Assembly: GCA_038727515.1 (NCBI GenBank)
Contig: JAVYVS010000001.1
Location: 288,001-352,000 of the forward strand
Origin: Candidatus Methanomethylicia archaeon
GTDB taxonomy: Archaea; Thermoproteota; Methanomethylicia; Culexarchaeales; Culexarchaeaceae
Reading direction: 5' to 3'
Length of the DNA: 64,000 nt
Below are positions 35,566 through 64,000 of this stretch, one piece after another. The position numbers and the translations under genes are program-made. Every line of letters starts with the position of its first letter. Position 1 is the stretch's first letter. The notes under the pieces were generated by a model. The model had not been told where the DNA came from. It did no database searches and saw only the letters and a list, made by a program, of their open reading frames with translations.

Positions 35566-37227
35566 TTAGAGATTATTTATTTTAGCATATTCCTTTGCTG
35601 CTTCTATAACTTTTTCAGCTTCTTCAGAATACTTCGGTATTGTGTCTTCAACTATACATAATGCTGGTATCACTTTTTCCTTGGGATTTGGTATAAAGAA
35701 TTTTTGATGACCAAATTCATGTACACCAGTACTCCCCCTTCCAGGTGATGGATGTGATAAATGATATGTTGTTCTAACATATTTATGGAAGAAATCAATG
35801 TAGTTCTTTGGAAAAGGAACATGATAGAATGGTATTAATGGGAATAATGCATCATAATATGCTTCACCAAATATTAAGAAATCCTTACCATATCTTGATT
35901 TAAGCTTGTTAACTAATTCCTTTAAACCTTCATACATATCATACCTATAATCATTAACATACAAATGCGGTATATCAAAGAATGCTCCATCAACTTTAAA
36001 TTCATCTGTAATTTTACAAATGGAATTATACAAGTGATCTTGGAATTTCGGATTCCCAAGATTTAACGGTATCCATGTATCATCGCGTTCTCTATCAGCA
36101 TCCCAATCAACCCAATTAGGTGGAACTACACTCAATTCATATTTATCTTTGAAAATTGCTTCCTCCAATCCAAGTTTTTTAACCCATCTAAAACCTGCTG
36201 CTACAGCACCATACATTGGTACTACATGCATTCCAAGTTCATGTGCACCATCAACAAGCTTCTTAAATCCTTCAACTCCACCCAATTCTGGATCTGGTTC
36301 ATAAATGGGATAATCATAGTAATATCTCCCATTAAATCCCGGTAGGAATACTAAAACTCTATAACCTTCAATCCTCTCTGAAATCCATTCCAATATTTTA
36401 AGCATTTTATCAAATGTATTAAATATATACCCAGTCCAATGTTTACCATGCATATTAACAACTAATGAAACTTTCTTCATCCAATCCGGAACATCACCTC
36501 TATCCTCCCAAGATTTAAGCCCCCATTTCTCCTCCATAAAATTCATCCTCATCTTAAAAACATCCCATGGATCACTGCAGAAACCAATTCTCCAAATTGG
36601 AACCTCAATAAAATTAGATAGATTCATAGCTTTTTCCTCATGATACAATTCAATAACGCAAACACCATCTAAATCTCTCCTAATGGCAAAACGTTTAGGT
36701 CTAAAGATTCCATCCATACTTAAAGCATAGAAATATCTATCTAAATCCTTTACATATGTTAAAAGTATTGGTGTAGGTAGACTACGTGTATAACTAGTCC
36801 ATACCCTCGGATAATTCAATACTAAACCTTGATCTAAATTCAAATCTTCAAAATTAAATGAACTAGTTAAAACCTTATCAACATGAATACCTTTAATTAA
36901 GACGCCAAGGGATTTTATCTTCCATTCTTCAAAAGATAAATCACGATGAAGATTTGCATTACCAAATTCAATTTTAGCTTTACACATAATCTCTATGAAA
37001 TTGCCTTTATCATTTAAGCAAGCTTCAAAATAACCATCAATCTTTCCCTTACCACCAGCATAAAAGAAACTATTAGAGTATAATTTCAGCGTATTCTCAT
37101 AATATGAAACTTTAGTCTTTTCAGGATCAACACCATAAATATTGTCAAGTGTAAAAATTCTAAAGGAAAAATCAAAATCTTTAAATCGATGATATTTATC
37201 ACCAAAATTATAACTTAAATCCATCAA
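35566..37227 (-). CDS. Uncharacterised glycoside-hydrolase-like TIM-barrel protein
   Basis: VPDW, YEPDPELGGVEGFKKLVDGAHELGMHVVPM, LNLGNPKFQDHL, VDGAFFD, FGEA. Confidence 0.6.
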   Translation of the reverse strand: MMDLSYNFGDKYHRFKDFDFSFRIFTLDNIYGVDPEKTKVSYYENTLKLYSNSFFYAGGKGKIDGYFEACLNDKGNFIEIMCKAKIEFGNANLHRDLSFEEWKIKSLGVLIKGIHVDKVLTSSFNFEDLNLDQGLVLNYPRVWTSYTRSLPTPILLTYVKDLDRYFYALSMDGIFRPKRFAIRRDLDGVCVIELYHEEKAMNLSNFIEVPIWRIGFCSDPWDVFKMRMNFMEEKWGLKSWEDRGDVPDWMKKVSLVVNMHGKHWTGYIFNTFDKMLKILEWISERIEGYRVLVFLPGFNGRYYYDYPIYEPDPELGGVEGFKKLVDGAHELGMHVVPMYGAVAAGFRWVKKLGLEEAIFKDKYELSVVPPNWVDWDADRERDDTWIPLNLGNPKFQDHLYNSICKITDEFKVDGAFFDIPHLYVNDYRYDMYEGLKELVNKLKSRYGKDFLIFGEAYYDALFPLIPFYHVPFPKNYIDFFHKYVRTTYHLSHPSPGRGSTGVHEFGHQKFFIPNPKEKVIPALCIVEDTIPKYSEEAEKVIEAAKEYAKINNL

Positions 37228-37282: not shown

Positions 37283-37975
37283 TTATTTAGACTTCTTCTT
37301 TACATCCATGTATATCATTATACAGAGTATCACTATGAATACTGGTATCATGTAGTATGCTGGATAGGATAATAAATATTGCATTCTACCAGTAAATAAT
37401 GTCATCCTGCTGAGTACTGTTCCACCAAATGCACCACCAAATGTGAACATGAGTACATATCTACCAGCTTTAGCTATATATCCCATAGGTTTACGAATAA
37501 CACTTATATCTGTGAAGAAGAAGTATAGGAAAGATGATATAAAGCCTAAGACTATAATTAGATTGTCTATTGGAGTGTATGGTCCAGTGGTTAATGAAAT
37601 TACACTAGCTTTAATCTGTCTAACTATTTGAGCTTCAATAAGTGCTCTCACAGATACACCAGTACCAACACCAACCATCACAGCCATGGAATATCTACTA
37701 ATCCAAGCTTGCTTAACAGTAAATCTTGTGAAAAGCATTATTCCAAGTATTATTGGTATGATAAACCAGTAATTACCTGCAGAAATCCTAGATACACCCT
37801 GATCCAAAATATTCTTCACAGCAAAGGCAACACCATAACCAGCATAAAGACCAACAAAAGTATGTTCAGCAATTCTATACAATATATTTTCCCTATAAAG
37901 TAGACTGTAAATCATCAATGTTAATGCAGCAGCTATTAAACCTGAAATAAGCGAAGCCAATTCCGCAAACTCCAT
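37283..37975 (-). CDS. Uncharacterised polytopic membrane protein (component D, copy 1)
   Basis: SLLYRENILYRIAEH..VG, YFFFT, GRYVLMFTFGGAFG. TAATG coupling with the upstream gene; homolog at 62230-62901. Confidence 0.85.
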   Translation of the reverse strand: MEFAELASLISGLIAAALTLMIYSLLYRENILYRIAEHTFVGLYAGYGVAFAVKNILDQGVSRISAGNYWFIIPIILGIMLFTRFTVKQAWISRYSMAVMVGVGTGVSVRALIEAQIVRQIKASVISLTTGPYTPIDNLIIVLGFISSFLYFFFTDISVIRKPMGYIAKAGRYVLMFTFGGAFGGTVLSRMTLFTGRMQYLLSYPAYYMIPVFIVILCIMIYMDVKKKSK

Positions 37976-38781
37976 TATCTCACCCTCCTCCCACCTAACC
38001 AATACTGTAAATTACCAATCACAATCAATATGACAACAAATAAATGCGAAAGTGAAAGAGCATCAGAGGAAGCGCAAGCTTCTCCAGGGCTGGCAATTAA
38101 AACTTCGTATTCAGCTGCAGCTCTAATACCAGCCACCATACCAACCAATTGACCTGCACTAATATATGGCATATATCCAGGGGCATTCATACCCCAAGTC
38201 ATAATTGCCACTGGAACACCATATGGAGTATAGAATTGCCTTATGTAAGGTTCACAATAACCGGTAGCAATAACCAATGCTAGATCCTTAGCAGTCTTAA
38301 CATTCTTCATTAATGGTATTTGCTCTATGGGTGTACCATAAACATCTCTGGGTAGTGCTTTATGAATGTTCTCAGCTATAGCAGCCATAGCAGTTTCATA
38401 ACCAGTAACATAACCAAAATCAACATAATCAACACCATAAGTCTTCTTTTCCAATAAATGAGCAATAGCAGGCTTAATTCTAGTAGCAAAATTTGTTGGA
38501 CCTTCAGCTGTATATAGTGAAATAAGGATTATCTTAACATTTTTACTTAGTAGATGCTTTAGAACTGCAATATTTGAGGGGCCATGTTCAGGCCAACTTG
38601 CAGCTCCAACACCATACTCAAATAATACAACACTACCCGGAGGTAGCGATTCAATTTTATCATACAATGCCTTTACTGGAGCGGTTATTGGTAATGGTAA
38701 TCCTAGAGGTCTAAGTAATGGTGCACCGACTACAATGAATAATAGTAGATACATATACCTTGGGTCAATTTCTTTAACCAT
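37975..38781 (-). CDS. Uncharacterised membrane-anchored alpha/beta protein (component C, copy 1)
   Basis: RPLGLP, YGVDYVDFGY..G.E, PY...GQL, G...AAEYE and a TM at each end. Start MVKEID at 38781; homolog at 62898-63707. Confidence 0.85.
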   Translation of the reverse strand: MVKEIDPRYMYLLLFIVVGAPLLRPLGLPLPITAPVKALYDKIESLPPGSVVLFEYGVGAASWPEHGPSNIAVLKHLLSKNVKIILISLYTAEGPTNFATRIKPAIAHLLEKKTYGVDYVDFGYVTGYETAMAAIAENIHKALPRDVYGTPIEQIPLMKNVKTAKDLALVIATGYCEPYIRQFYTPYGVPVAIMTWGMNAPGYMPYISAGQLVGMVAGIRAAAEYEVLIASPGEACASSDALSLSHLFVVILIVIGNLQYWLGGRRVR

Positions 38782-38785
38782 GTTC

Positions 38786-39433
38786 TCAACCTCCACCTCC
38801 AGCTTTAAGCCAAGCACTCTCTCTACCACTAAATGTCCTAATTGCAAGAGCTAGAGCACCTATAGCTGCGCCAACCATTATAGCCCTTTGACCAGCTGTT
38901 ATTGGAACACCCATAGCCCATGCACCCAAGGTAACTATTCCAGGATGTATATAGCCACCTATAGGTGCATTATAGAGTATAACAATTATCCCAGCCACTA
39001 AGAATATAGTTGTCTCAAGATTTCTAGCTCTAAAAGCTCTATATGATGCAGAAGTTATGAAGAAAGCAAGTATAGAGTAGACTGTTGGATCTAATGCAGC
39101 TATTGTCGTCGTATAAAGCCATCTATAACTTGGATGCCCCGTTATTGGTGGAAGTAAACCTAATATTGCCATAAGATACATTAAGAAAAGTGTCCATGCA
39201 CTTAATGCTCTCCTAACAACATCTTTCTCCCTCATAACAACTCGTCCATGAACAATTGTTAAGTTTATAACACCCATAAACATTGCAAATGCTGAAAGAA
39301 TGATAATCCAAACTTGAAGATCTGAAACAGCACTATGTAAAACTGGGATATCGAAAAAGTAATCTGCAAATGCCATAATACCTAGAATTGCAGTTAGGAA
39401 GAGTGGTAATTCACGTCTACGAAGCCAAGACAT
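38786..39433 (-). CDS. Uncharacterised polytopic membrane protein (component B, copy 1)
   Basis: About 6 TM, SASYRAFRARN, RAIMVGAAIG...IR...GRE; homolog at 63712-64000. Confidence 0.85.
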   Translation of the reverse strand: MSWLRRRELPLFLTAILGIMAFADYFFDIPVLHSAVSDLQVWIIILSAFAMFMGVINLTIVHGRVVMREKDVVRRALSAWTLFLMYLMAILGLLPPITGHPSYRWLYTTTIAALDPTVYSILAFFITSASYRAFRARNLETTIFLVAGIIVILYNAPIGGYIHPGIVTLGAWAMGVPITAGQRAIMVGAAIGALALAIRTFSGRESAWLKAGGGG

Positions 39434-39445
39434 GATACACACCCC

Positions 39446-40231
39446 CTATATACTAAGTAGATCCGTAAACCATTTCCCATACGCCGCTCCTAAAGTTGCT
39501 AAGATTGCTCCAATTATAGCTAACAATGATAGAAACATGCGGCCAAAATCCTCACCCACAATGGTTCCAATCTGCTCTGGATCCTTTGATAAATAGGCGC
39601 TTGCAGCAAAAATCTCTTCACCAATCAATGCATAATCACATACAGCTACGAAGAATGGTATATTATGATAGTTGGCGGTTCCACCAACTTGTACAGCTCC
39701 AGCTTTATATGCATTCTCTAATATCATTAAAGTTTCAGCATAGAATCCTCCAACCATAATAGTTCCAGCAACCTTCTGCCTATGTATTATACCCATGGCT
39801 GTAGTAGCCATTGGAAACTGACTATAAACAAATCTAACCATTTCTGGTCTAAATTTATCAGCTTTACCTTCAGCTTGAAAAGCTAATCTCACATTTTCCA
39901 AAGCCAATGGATAAACATCTTGAACTGCTATGAGCATAATAGGCTCTACATCATACCTTGCAGCTAAAGTAGTAGCATAATTAGTTACTGTAAGCCCAGC
40001 GAGAGTTTGAGCAGTTACACCTTCAATACCTGGAACCATAAGTAATGGTCTACCCATTTCAGCACATCTACCAATAACTTCTTCAATTGCATCAAGTGGA
40101 GCAATCTTACGCAACTTAAATATAGGCTTTCTCCTAGAAAGCCAAAGAGAAGTCAACATGAGAAAACACAGCACTAGAAATATCACAAATTGAGATATTC
40201 TTCCTTGAATTAACAAGAAAATCACTCTCAA
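39446..40231 (-). CDS. DUF6754-like protein (component A)
   Basis: LRKIAPLDAIEEVIGRCAEMGRP, TLAGL, FYAETL, IPFFVAVCDYALIGEEIFAASAYL. The family name is from recall. Confidence 0.75.
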   Translation of the reverse strand: MRVIFLLIQGRISQFVIFLVLCFLMLTSLWLSRRKPIFKLRKIAPLDAIEEVIGRCAEMGRPLLMVPGIEGVTAQTLAGLTVTNYATTLAARYDVEPIMLIAVQDVYPLALENVRLAFQAEGKADKFRPEMVRFVYSQFPMATTAMGIIHRQKVAGTIMVGGFYAETLMILENAYKAGAVQVGGTANYHNIPFFVAVCDYALIGEEIFAASAYLSKDPEQIGTIVGEDFGRMFLSLLAIIGAILATLGAAYGKWFTDLLSI

Positions 40232-40271: not shown

Positions 40272-41840
40272 GTGAAAATGGACTTAAAAAATAAATTAAT
40301 TGAGTTAGACGGAAAAATATTCGATTTTTATGTAAAAAATTTGAAAGAAATGCATGTACCATCCGCAGAAAACATAAACGCAATAATTGAAGAAATAGGA
40401 AAATTAAGGAAAGAAGTACTTGAAGTTAAGGAGTATATATGTGAAGATGATGTGGAAAATATTGTTTGGGCACAACATTTAATTGAATTGCTTGATTGCT
40501 GGGAGATTGGAATTAAAGAAAATACTAGACATCCAAGTAAATATCTCCGTGGAATAGGATTTAGAATCGCCAAAATACTTGAAGATGAAAAAAAGAGTAT
40601 AATTGAGAAAGCAGAAAAGATCAATGGATTATCAACGAAAATTTTAGAGATATTATCAGCAGTATATGAATTATGCCTAAAAGTTAGCGATGAAAAAATT
40701 ATAAGAACGATTAAATGTGCAAATGGATTAAAGAGGGATATAGATAGATACATTAAAATCATTGAAGAAATGATTTTAGAAAAAGAGGAGGAAAGAAAGG
40801 CAAAACAACAAATCATTGAAAAATTAAGTATTATGAGAAATTCAGTGGAAGAATTTGAATTAAAGGTTAAAGGGATCATTGGAGAGAAGAGGGAAATAGT
40901 TGATGAGATACCATATGAAACTCTAATGGAGAAACATTATAGGATACCAATAAAATGGGTATTAAGTTGGTATAAAGAAGAATTGGAGAATGCAAAGAAA
41001 AGATTCCATGAAATGGCAAGTAAATTTGATCCAAATAAAAATCCACTACAAGTATTAAGGGAAAAGATACATATTCCATATGAAAGTCCTGAAGAAATGT
41101 TTAAGGATATGGAGAGATTTCTAGAAATAGCTAAAGAAAATGCTAAAAAGTATTTAGATTTCCCAGATGAAGTTACATGTAAAGTTGTAGGTGTTAAAGA
41201 ATTTGAAAAAGATGTTTATCCAATGGGTCATGCTGGAGGACCAGACCCACTAGAAGGAGGATTAGAAAGCTATGTTGCATTAAACCAATACAATTATAAA
41301 GCATTTTCAAAGGGGTGGCTTATGATGATGGCAATACATGAAGCATATTATGGCCATAATATACATTCAATAAAGATAGGTTTAGCAAACATACCAAAAA
41401 CATTTAAGATAGGTAGTGGAATAGCAACACCAATATCTGAGGGGCTTGCACATAGAGGTGAAGAATTGCTACAACACATATATGGTGATGAAGCATTCCC
41501 ACTACTAGTAGCTTGGAGGAGGATGCAAACAACATTGAGAATATATATTGATATAGGTTTATTCTGTACGAAAACCATAACTCCGAATGATGCAGTTAAA
41601 TTGTATATGGATGTAATGGGATTTGATGAACAAACATCCAGAGGTTTAGTGGAATGGCATTTGGAGAATAGAGGGTATAATGTATGCTATTTCACAGGAT
41701 ATAAAATGATAGAAGAACTACGTAAATATACAAGTATGAGTGAGAAAGATTTTAGTAATACATTGTTCTCAGCTGGATTTATATCAATTAGTAATGCAAA
41801 AAGACTCCTTAAAATAAAGGATAAAATGCCATGGGAATAA
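40272..41840 (+). CDS. DUF885-family zincin-like protein
   Basis: IHEAYYGHNIH, SEGLAH, RIYIDIGL, YFTGY; no signal peptide. Confidence 0.75.
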   Translation: MKMDLKNKLIELDGKIFDFYVKNLKEMHVPSAENINAIIEEIGKLRKEVLEVKEYICEDDVENIVWAQHLIELLDCWEIGIKENTRHPSKYLRGIGFRIAKILEDEKKSIIEKAEKINGLSTKILEILSAVYELCLKVSDEKIIRTIKCANGLKRDIDRYIKIIEEMILEKEEERKAKQQIIEKLSIMRNSVEEFELKVKGIIGEKREIVDEIPYETLMEKHYRIPIKWVLSWYKEELENAKKRFHEMASKFDPNKNPLQVLREKIHIPYESPEEMFKDMERFLEIAKENAKKYLDFPDEVTCKVVGVKEFEKDVYPMGHAGGPDPLEGGLESYVALNQYNYKAFSKGWLMMMAIHEAYYGHNIHSIKIGLANIPKTFKIGSGIATPISEGLAHRGEELLQHIYGDEAFPLLVAWRRMQTTLRIYIDIGLFCTKTITPNDAVKLYMDVMGFDEQTSRGLVEWHLENRGYNVCYFTGYKMIEELRKYTSMSEKDFSNTLFSAGFISISNAKRLLKIKDKMPWE

Positions 41841-62229: not shown

Positions 62230-62901
62230 TTAAGATTTTCTACGTTTATAAACGTCAAACACCACTAGCAATACTGCAACTATCAACAATACGTTTTGAG
62301 GATATTTTGCCAAAAATGCTGCACGTTCAATGGTGAAAATCTGATTAGCATATAATGTTGCACCAAAAGTAGAGCCAAAAGCTAACATCATACTCCACCT
62401 ACCAATCCTAGCTAAACCACCAATCCAACCCTTATGTTCAATGGTAAATGTAAAGTAACTCACTGTAGCAATACAAGCAATTGTAGCAATAATATGATTA
62501 ATCAAATCTATGGTAGACAACCCTGAAAATTTAACACCTAAACCCTCTATTTGCCCTATAATCATAACTGGAATAGCTCTACTCACAGCATAACCAGAAC
62601 CTGCACCAGCAATAGCAGCCATAGCCCATCTACTCAAAAACAAATACTTCTTTGAGTAAATAGTGTATAGAAGTAAACCTAAGATTGCAGGTATTATAAG
62701 CCAAAACTTACCTTGAATTAAAGGTTGTAGCCAAATGCGATTCAAAGTGGATAGAGAAATGTACAATGTATAACCCATGCCAAAACCGACCATAAGAACT
62801 TCAGCAATCCTATAAAATACGTTCTCCCTATATAGTAGACTCCAAGCCATCAAAGTTAATGCACCAACAATAAGTGGAGTAACAAATTCACTCATATTCA
62901 C
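62230..62901 (-). CDS. Component D homolog, copy 2
   Basis: SLLYRENVFYRIAE, YFTFT and GRWSMMLAFGSTFG match 37283-37975. Confidence 0.85.
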   Translation of the reverse strand: MNMSEFVTPLIVGALTLMAWSLLYRENVFYRIAEVLMVGFGMGYTLYISLSTLNRIWLQPLIQGKFWLIIPAILGLLLYTIYSKKYLFLSRWAMAAIAGAGSGYAVSRAIPVMIIGQIEGLGVKFSGLSTIDLINHIIATIACIATVSYFTFTIEHKGWIGGLARIGRWSMMLAFGSTFGATLYANQIFTIERAAFLAKYPQNVLLIVAVLLVVFDVYKRRKS

Positions 62902-63707
62902 CTACCCCCCAACTTCTTCTTTAAATAACCATAATTTGCCACAATAGTCAATATAACACCCAAAGAAACTGTTAGAGATGCAGCATCCATAAAAGCTGTG
63001 GCTTCACCCTTAATACCCATGAGCTGTTCATATTCAGCAGCACCCCTACTACCCCTAATAAGAGAATACAATTGACCAGTATTTATATAGGGCATAACCT
63101 GTGGAACAATATCTGAGGATAAAACGCCAATAATGGTTTCAACTTTTCCGGAAAACTGCCTCATCCATGGATCCACCCAAGTTAGACAAGCGAAAATGTA
63201 CATCTTAAAATCACTAATCGTATTAAAAGCATTCATTATGGGCATATTAACAGTGGGATTACCGTAGTAATCTCTTTCAAACATTTTAGGATTAGATACA
63301 AAAGCAGCCATACCAGTTTCAAAACCTGGAATATAACCTAAAACAACGTAATCAGTACCATAAACAGCACCCTTCAAATCAATTTCTCCAAGAATTCTAT
63401 GAGCAATAGCAGGACCATTGGGATCGAAAGCTATCATAACAATTCTAGCGCGTTTAATGAATAAATGCTGCATAATATCCCTCATAGCTATTCCAAGCTC
63501 AACCCATTCACCTGGAGTAAAATCAAAACTTATCAAGACGAGATCGCCAGGTTTCAAGGATTCAATTGCATAATAAGTCTTATTGGTTAAATAGAATTGT
63601 GGCAATGGTATACCTATAGGTCTAAAAGCTGGTAGAAATGTTAAGAATAATACCACAAGGAAAATTATCTGCCTATCATATTTAGACATAAAGGTGTGCC
63701 AATCCAT
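62898..63707 (-). CDS. Component C homolog, copy 2
   Basis: RPIGIP, YGTDYVVLGYIPGFE, MPYINTGQL, GAAEYE; start MDWHTF at 63707. Confidence 0.85.
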   Translation of the reverse strand: MDWHTFMSKYDRQIIFLVVLFLTFLPAFRPIGIPLPQFYLTNKTYYAIESLKPGDLVLISFDFTPGEWVELGIAMRDIMQHLFIKRARIVMIAFDPNGPAIAHRILGEIDLKGAVYGTDYVVLGYIPGFETGMAAFVSNPKMFERDYYGNPTVNMPIMNAFNTISDFKMYIFACLTWVDPWMRQFSGKVETIIGVLSSDIVPQVMPYINTGQLYSLIRGSRGAAEYEQLMGIKGEATAFMDAASLTVSLGVILTIVANYGYLKKKLGGR

Positions 63708-63711
63708 CCCA

Positions 63712-64000
63712 TCACCCCGTATACGCCCGTTCATAACCCAATAAAACACGAATAGCAATTGCAATAGTCCCCAATGCAACCCCAATTATAACACCTCTAC
63801 TAGCACCCATATTTGGAACGTCAAGTATCCAATTAGCCACAGTTATAGTCTGTGGTATAACAACTTCAAATACTGGTGCATACATCATCATTAAGAATAC
63901 AGCTGCAAATGCAAAGAATGCAGCATCAAGATTCCTAATTCTAAATGCTCGGTATATAGCGGTATAATTGTAGAAGGCTGTAAAACATATTATTGCAATA
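63712..64000 (-). CDS. Component B homolog, copy 2 (partial; absent from the ORF track)
   Basis: Manual translation from 63999: IAIICFTAFYNYTAIYRAFRIRNLDAAFF...NWILDVPNMGASRGVIIGVALGTIAIAIRVLLGYERAYTG*. Confidence 0.85.
   Translation of the reverse strand, partial: IAIICFTAFYNYTAIYRAFRIRNLDAAFFAFAAVFLMMMYAPVFEVVIPQTITVANWILDVPNMGASRGVIIGVALGTIAIAIRVLLGYERAYTG

Follow-up and report, generated by a model that had tools for sequence, protein, structure and literature searches.

A DUF6754-led four-gene membrane cassette in a Culexarchaeaceae archaeon, a candidate modular uptake system that co-occurs with a GlmL-like actin-fold protein

Which kind of membrane system is encoded by four small open reading frames (ORFs) that lie in tandem on the minus strand within positions 37283-40231 of a 64-kb stretch of archaeal DNA (hereafter the window, that is, the whole stretch of 64,000 nucleotides that was analyzed, from contig JAVYVS010000001.1 of a Candidatus Methanomethylicia archaeon from a hot spring)? 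A first-pass annotation had described their products, A, B, C, and D, as an uncharacterized four-component membrane system and had pictured this system as ATP independent; companion annotations had treated A/C and B/D as paralogous pairs. According to our analysis, the four genes are real and encode a conserved four-component membrane system, whereas the ATP independence is doubtful and the paralogy finds no support in profile comparison. We tentatively favor, with rather less than even confidence, a reading of the sequences in which A-B-C-D would be the substrate-specific membrane unit of an undescribed modular uptake system for peptide-, amide-, or amino-acid-derived substrates. The run of four genes with spacings of 12, 4, and -1 bp was reproduced when internal ATG codons, which all lie inside the called ORFs and are the likely starts of C and D, were used for B, C, and D (Table 1).

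As a working definition, a cassette comprises homologues of all four genes on one strand in the order A-B-C-D. The host genome (1.586 Mb, 33% G+C, 93.6% complete) harbors eight such cassettes in identical gene order, the other copies being 28 to 44% identical to that at 37283-40231, and the arrangement is far beyond chance, since each of the eight DUF6754 genes that exceed the family cut-off in the genome leads a set of B, C, and D homologues in unchanged order. The four-way co-occurrence holds elsewhere as well: of 80 loci retrieved from species genomes in GTDB, 73 contain the complete ordered cassette, the remainder being four loci clipped by contig ends and three variants. The carriers belong to Bathyarchaeia, Bacillota (Symbiobacterium thermophilum and Fermentithermobacillaceae), Planctomycetota, Zixibacteria, Cloacimonadota, Ignavibacteria, Armatimonadota, Eisenbacteria, and Latescibacterota and include a genome labeled Gemmatimonas, and two more metagenomic contexts show the same four genes. 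A word-indexed protein search returned 545 relatives of A, of which those named in their source are all called "hypothetical protein" or "DUF6754 domain-containing protein," and by exhaustive search the family of A comprises at least 2,642 clusters at 50% identity.

The sister genome contains seven cassettes, one Bacillota genome contains 11, and each of four Ignavibacteria or Zixibacteria loci has three in tandem; such paralogue expansion is the pattern expected of specificity-diversified transporters. DUF6754 is rare in the phylum of the archaeon (4 of 151 sampled genomes), although eight and seven copies are present here and in the sister genome, and the nearest relatives of the window A protein outside its own lineage, at 42 to 49% identity, include Bacillota proteins, which suggests that the cassette was acquired horizontally and then expanded in this lineage. 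One of the A paralogues shares 85% identity with a protein of the archaeon YNP-LCB-024-027, the bin that serves as the type of Candidatus Culexarchaeum yellowstonense (PMC9723716), and we infer that the host is a family-level relative of the latter. The genome also has about 23 genes for ABC ATPases, away from the cassettes, so that the cassette is an additional family and not a replacement of ABC transporters. In one of the eight cassettes, at genome C1:633963-634778 (locus L013, outside the window), an in-frame TAA splits A into ORFs of 149 and 101 aa but the other three genes are undamaged, so that the copy may be in decay or the stop may stem from a sequencing error.

To describe the subunits, relatives of A (67 sequences, alignment A5), B (85, alignment A2), C (82, alignment A4), and D (72, alignment A3) were aligned. 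Subunit A matches Pfam DUF6754 (PF20539) with an E value of 3.8e-69 and 233.1 bits over profile positions 9-251 of 257, the gathering cut-off being 27 bits as a whole-protein score. According to the positive-inside rule, it has a short N terminus outside, a first transmembrane (TM) segment, TM1, a cytoplasmic alpha/beta domain of approximately 195 aa, and a C-terminal TM segment, the family-averaged count of Lys plus Arg being 1.4 before TM1 and 4.1 after it. Support for this orientation comes from the exported extensions of its relatives: in 124 of 152 representative A proteins, an N-terminal extension of 100 to more than 1,000 aa precedes TM1, and nine extensions that were read singly mostly start with a signal-peptide-like segment, while some extensions are Fn3. 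The archaeal A proteins of this genome have no N-terminal extension. The cytoplasmic domain shows 41% mean column identity, contains eight invariant columns (G54, R55, E58, A91, G161, G178, D199, and E206), and is rich in invariant acidic residues, among them E51, E58, D199, and E206 (alignments A1 and A5). In sequence and profile searches of the PDB, neither A nor two long N-terminal extensions of A relatives gave a match. Some of the extensions carry repeats resembling beta-propeller blades. Two suspected A-B fusions (P0009 and P0062) were rejected, as they are really A plus an N-terminal extension, and in P0275 (504 aa, from a 1.8-kb metagenome contig) an FtsX-like permease domain (PF02687) is annotated ahead of DUF6754, a single case that may be a gene-calling artifact.

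Subunits B and D are polytopic, as had been annotated. B has 6 TM segments with both ends inside, as judged from the alternation of family-averaged Lys plus Arg counts along its loops, and D has seven helices. The charged motifs that had been read in them (YRAFR and GRE in B, YREN..YRIAE in D) are present and conserved across the 72 to 85 relatives. In B, the YRAFRAR motif lies at the cytoplasmic end of TM4, and R186 is invariant; the Arg of YRAFR is conserved in 84 of 85 sequences and the Phe in 83, as are the Gly and the acidic residue of GRE in 82 and 84, respectively. The motif following helix 1 of D can be written S-x-L-Y-(K/R)-(D/E)-N...Y-(R/K)-x-A-E-H, where the Asn of YREN is conserved in 68 of 72 sequences and the Glu of YRIAE in 71. 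C has both termini inside and rich in Lys and Arg, an extracytoplasmic Rossmann-like alpha/beta domain between two TM segments, a conserved GAAEYE stretch, and the polar residues H246 and N257 in its last TM segment. The topology analysis thus upholds the description of A and C as alpha/beta domains with a TM segment at either end; profile comparison of the supposed paralogues gave hhalign probabilities of 4.2% (A versus C) and 5.4% (B versus D). No Walker A, CxxC, or CxxCH motif was found in A to D, in agreement with the reported absence of Walker, Fe-S, and heme motifs. B, C, and D had zero matches in Pfam at an E value of 0.01 and in NCBIfam, and a weak Pfam scan (E value of 1) of the 85 B and 72 D relatives revealed no consistent family. 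B is approximately 610 aa long in Planctomycetota (L047:6806-8662 and L092:4182-6020) versus approximately 215 aa elsewhere, a length kept in more than 100 relatives, including that of the cultured Thalassoroseus pseudoceratinae, none of which has a Pfam domain.

The AlphaFold2 model of C (pLDDT 95.9, pTM 0.91) consists of one Rossmann-like lobe between two TM helices and gave generic alpha/beta matches only, the best being the hypothetical protein 1kjn (Z 9.5), with GT-B half-domains, SDRs, and RCK domains among the closest folds (Z 8-9.5); single lobes of sugar-binding proteins score Z 8.0-8.5, not above the level of RCK, SDR, and GT-B domains. C had no match in PDB sequence searches. The model of D has seven helices with a pLDDT of 83 and a pTM of only 0.58, and at that pTM nothing rose above noise in comparison with solved folds, the best Foldseek match in the PDB having an E value of 1.2 and a TM-score below 0.23; VIA-align over 48,161 chains gave a best Z of 6.2 on 75 residues. 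A prediction of the A+B+C+D complex, in which A served as partner, scored high for the true chains and fell to zero once the partner was swapped, but replacing C left the score as it was; the prediction is used here neither for nor against binding.

When the neighbors of the 80 loci were clustered, four recurrent same-strand genes emerged, encoding a GlmL-like protein, X, Y, and Z. The first is a GlmL/MutL-like ASKHA (actin-fold) protein of approximately 613 aa (PF13941, E value of 2e-125), for which PDB sequence and profile searches gave no match. X, of approximately 377 aa, shows weak RnfC_N-type barrel-sandwich and KOW signals and matched in the PDB by a KOW-like tail only. Y and Z are small membrane proteins that occur with these genes in 12 and 6 loci, respectively. 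In about 21 of the 80 loci, the GlmL-like/X pair adjoins the cassette and shares its strand, the order being Y-Z-GlmL-X-A-B-C-D in four loci, one of them labeled Eisenbacteria, and Y-A-B-C-D-GlmL-X in Bacillota and one Planctomycetota locus. Among the 151 genomes sampled from the phylum of the archaeon, X is present in exactly the three with a full DUF6754 gene; among 201 sampled from the phylum of a Symbiobacterium thermophilum genome, A and X occur together in 14, a weak A alone in one, and X alone in one. Five of five further cassette genomes contain X, and archaeon G123, which has a single cassette, carries A on the same contig as X and the GlmL-like gene. The cassette therefore co-occurs almost one-to-one with the GlmL-like/X pair, and this recurs in distant phyla. 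Given this co-occurrence and the frequent adjacency, the label "ATP-independent" of the first-pass annotation is doubtful. Loci L056, L073, and L078 contain A with no detectable B, C, or D downstream, two of them with X or a 613-aa gene upstream, and in L056 three ORFs of 199 to 224 aa take the place of B, C, and D; these may be diverged variant cassettes.

The archaeon studied here has exactly one GlmL-like/X pair for its eight cassettes, at genome C1:552761-555773, approximately 200 kb from the window, and none of the eight adjoins it. Genes for an M55 D-aminopeptidase and an Orn/DAP decarboxylase come next after the pair; no Y homologue was found in this genome, and the surroundings of its one Z homologue are uninformative. 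PF13941 covers the first 490 or so residues of the GlmL-like copy (E value of 9e-121, 404 bits), in which the ASKHA phosphate-1 loop is kept. The phosphate-2 loop reads GVGLGGATTN in the three archaeal proteins inspected, the other two being 94% and 68% identical to this one, versus GVDIGGATTD in 13 of 13 bacterial homologues.

Around the eight cassettes of this genome we found M28, M20, and S49 peptidases, a 560-aa amidohydrolase (Amidohydro_3/Amidohydro_1), DUF885, a weakly GH13-like protein, a DAP epimerase, a GDPD (glycerophosphodiesterase), and an acyl-CoA dehydrogenase. The bacterial cassettes are accompanied by M20, GGT, and M3 peptidases, a beta-lactamase-like protein, an Asp/Glu racemase, amidohydrolases, DUF885 (in three loci), and the glycine-cleavage P protein; a TonB-dependent receptor lies beside the cassette in three bacterial loci, and a chemoreceptor gene cluster neighbors it in three loci. 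In the window, the recurrence of B-C-D that had been noted at 62230-64000 is a second cassette, of which D, C, and part of B are present and the remaining part of B and the matching A lie just past the edge, at genome C1:351712-353098, according to tblastn and the ORF map. The cytoplasmic hydrolases reported beside both copies were also recovered, the flanking proteins without signal peptide being DUF885, M28 peptidase, GH13/DUF6259-like (weak), and flavin-reductase-like proteins. The 35566-37227 product gave a DUF6259 match below the cut-off (E value of 0.0027) and a weak 55-residue match to the GH13 catalytic region (E value of 9e-4).

Table 1. Coordinates of the cassette genes and of associated features (window positions unless marked as genome positions)
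Feature	Location	Strand	Remark
Subunit A	39446-40231	minus	261 aa; Pfam DUF6754
Subunit B	38786-39442	minus	218 aa, or 215 aa from ATG at 39433
Subunit C	37975-38781	minus	268 aa from ATG at 38781 (likely start); longest ORF extends to 38847
Subunit D	37283-37975	minus	~230 aa from ATG at 37975 (likely start); longest ORF extends to 38002
Second cassette, subunit D	62230-62901	minus	tblastn 33% identity to D, E 1e-28
Second cassette, subunit C	62898-63785	minus	tblastn 35% identity to C, E 1e-41
Second cassette, subunit B, C-terminal part	63712-64000	minus	open-ended ORF with YRAFRIRN motif; window edge cuts B
Downstream neighbor, not a subunit	35566-37227	minus	553 aa; weakly glycoside-hydrolase-like; context only
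Divergent neighbor, not a subunit	40272-41840	plus	522 aa; DUF885 (PF05960, E 1e-20); context only
Cassette beside biotin carrier/OadA-like genes	genome C2:285943-288968	same as biotin carrier/OadA-like genes	outside window
GlmL-like ASKHA protein of this archaeon	genome C1:553923-555782 (L100:8923-10782)	minus	outside window

The uptake reading starts from what was observed, namely, the cassette, its topology, its expansion, its co-occurrence with the GlmL-like/X pair, and its context; transport itself, its direction, its substrates, and its coupling are drawn from context only, and an uptake role fits the neighboring genes. The domains of A and C face opposite sides of the membrane, the TM helices hold polar residues, and the conserved charged motifs of B and D lie at the cytoplasmic face. 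In such a system, B and D would form the translocation path through the membrane, and the substrate would be captured outside by C and, in most bacteria, also by the exported extension of A. The cytoplasmic domain of A might dock the shared GlmL-like/X module, which would energize or gate the unit, and the imported compounds would then be broken down by the neighboring cytoplasmic hydrolases. A further step, which we regard as rather doubtful, is that the cassette and the GlmL-like/X pair may make up a new class of transport machine, in which an actin/sugar-kinase-fold protein, in place of an ABC, P-type, or V/F-type ATPase, serves many interchangeable four-subunit units; here, one soluble module would serve eight membrane units.

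Several points weigh against uptake. The predicted models of C and D, the latter at a pTM of only 0.58, showed no clear likeness to subunits of known transporters or to binding proteins with two lobes. The link with hydrolases is a tendency only, because many neighbors are housekeeping or locus-variable genes, and, as related genomes are nonindependent, fewer independent events underlie the co-occurrence than the counts imply. Both aspartates of the phosphate-2 loop are replaced in the archaeal GlmL-like proteins, which makes ATP hydrolysis uncertain in this lineage, and actin-fold proteins that sit on bitopic membrane proteins (PilM, FtsA, and GspL) are usually scaffolds, not transport motors. 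In the literature, moreover, we found no paper on DUF6754 or PF13941 and nothing relevant on GlmL. In an explanation without any solute uptake, ABCD and GlmL-like/X would be a transmembrane machine, that is, an exporter, an envelope-assembly device, a mechanotransmission complex similar to FtsEX or MacB, or a scaffold similar to PilM-N-O or to FtsA with its bitopic partners. Actin-fold proteins commonly anchor such machines, and the signal-peptide-bearing extensions on most A proteins (some of them Fn3), the accompaniment by Y and Z, and the one A relative in which, on a short contig, an FtsX-like permease domain is joined to DUF6754 would suit them too. We nevertheless deem this explanation unlikely: the carriers are archaea and Gram-positive and Gram-negative lineages with unrelated envelopes, eight diverged copies (30 to 45% identity) with an extensionless A in a genome of approximately 1.6 Mb are hard to explain for an envelope device, and the neighbors are cytoplasmic catabolic hydrolases and not envelope or secretion genes.

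The first-pass annotation had instead proposed an ATP-independent, possibly ion-coupled importer. In this version, ABCD would be a self-contained secondary carrier and the GlmL-like/X genes would only be a co-inherited pair of catabolic enzymes. The lack of a nucleotide-binding motif in A to D would agree with this, as would the conserved acidic and basic residues in or near TM helices, the location of the GlmL-like/X pair away from all eight cassettes and in an amino-acid catabolic operon with the M55 peptidase and the decarboxylase, and the loss of both phosphate-2 aspartates from the archaeal GlmL-like protein. However, a nearly one-to-one co-occurrence with same-strand adjacency in about a quarter of the loci across distant phyla exceeds what a transporter plus a catabolic enzyme would lead one to expect, and the large, almost invariant cytoplasmic domain of A would have no obvious role in a simple carrier of this kind, which leaves the proposal clearly improbable in our view. 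Still less probable is a membrane-bound enzyme or sensor with the acidic cytoplasmic domain of A as its catalytic or signaling site. The eight invariant columns of A, E58, D199, and E206 included, do resemble an active site, the fold matches of C include enzymes and RCK domains, and a chemoreceptor gene cluster adjoins in three loci, but Pfam, NCBIfam, and PDB sequence searches gave no match to an enzyme or sensor family, the matches of C are generic, and two conserved polytopic subunits with paralogue expansion suit transport better. We assign only a very slight chance to an ion-translocating energy-coupling module for cytoplasmic enzymes, such as a membrane partner of a biotin-dependent decarboxylase. 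It is suggested by genes for a 160-aa biotin carrier and a 468-aa carboxyltransferase of the OadA-like type, which lie directly upstream of one cassette and on its strand (genome C2:283981-288968; L015:4081-9068). This enzyme appears to be without both of its usual partners, since neither an OadB-type pump (OAD_beta, PF03977) nor a biotin carboxylase was found in the 93.6%-complete genome, and the charged residues at the membrane face of the cassette proteins would be in keeping with ion translocation. Such a context, however, is seen at one of the eight cassettes only, no carboxyltransferase is among the annotated recurrent neighbor clusters of the 80 loci (several smaller clusters being unannotated), and Pfam gave no sign that the cassette proteins are akin to subunits of OadB, Rnf/Nqr, or Mrp.

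If A-B-C-D is truly an uptake system, a major type of transporter would so far have gone unrecognized, and metabolic reconstructions would lack much of the substrate intake of the organisms concerned, as eight cassettes stand beside about 23 ABC ATPase genes in this genome. The system occurs in many lineages of uncultured heterotrophs, including Bathyarchaeia, relatives of Culexarchaeia, Zixibacteria, Cloacimonadota, Ignavibacteria, Planctomycetota, and thermophilic Bacillota. If an actin-fold protein does serve a membrane machine here, such a mechanism would be new. The culturable carriers Symbiobacterium thermophilum and Thalassoroseus pseudoceratinae make the question directly testable.

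How does the cassette compare with what has been described? The Pfam entry DUF6754, of which A is a full-length member, covers A alone and gives no function, while B, C, and D have no family model. We found no paper that names a DUF6754 system, in line with the first-pass annotation, and the paper on Culexarchaeia names only generic peptide and amino-acid transporters (PMC9723716). The annotated dissimilarity to ABC, ECF, TRAP, and MFS transporters was borne out by the lack of Pfam matches to such families and by the fold searches with the C and D models, which gave no match to a known transporter or enzyme complex. We detected neither ABC_tran nor a permease family in A to D, nor an ABC gene among the scanned immediate neighbors of the eight cassettes, and B, C, and D had no Pfam match at an E value of 0.01 to membrane components of TRAP, TTT, MFS, ECF, or PTS systems. 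The beta subunit of Na+-translocating decarboxylases (PF03977) likewise had no match in B or D. We found no described system that is alike in sequence or fold.

With TTT transporters and with TRAP transporters, from which the first-pass annotation had set it apart, the cassette shares a multisubunit composition without an ABC ATPase, a small and a larger membrane component, and an extracytoplasmic alpha/beta component. However, Pfam detects neither DctQ/DctM nor TctA/TctB nor the associated binding proteins in it, C is in its predicted model a single lobe anchored by two TM segments instead of a free two-lobed binding protein, and a fourth subunit with a cytoplasmic domain is added. PilM-PilN-PilO, GspL-GspM, and FtsA similarly combine an actin-fold cytoplasmic protein with bitopic membrane proteins that bear extracytoplasmic domains, but no pilus, secretion, or division genes are in the cassettes, no sequence match was seen, and the cassette has two polytopic subunits in addition. 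As for the co-occurring ASKHA protein of 613 to 619 aa, it shares PF13941 and the phosphate-1 loop with GlmL/MutL, the accessory protein of B12-dependent glutamate mutase, and with Or-4 of ornithine degradation. Unlike GlmL, it is approximately 150 aa longer, pairs with X, co-occurs with a membrane cassette, has an altered phosphate-2 loop in its archaeal copies, and has as neighbors here X, the M55 peptidase, and the decarboxylase, with no B12 mutase gene beside it; its bacterial homologues also score far under the cut-offs of the GlmL and Or-4 equivalogs (NF040745 and NF040744; 229 versus 475 bits and 211 versus 600 bits, respectively). The last comparison is with ECF and PTS systems. In sequence the cassette is unrelated to EcfT, S-components, EIIC, and ABC ATPases, and its soluble module is actin-fold and not ABC or PEP dependent, so that the likeness is one of organization only: as ECF S-components share one energizing module and PTS permeases share EI and HPr, many membrane units are present per shared soluble module, at 8:1 in this archaeon and 7:1 in its sister genome.

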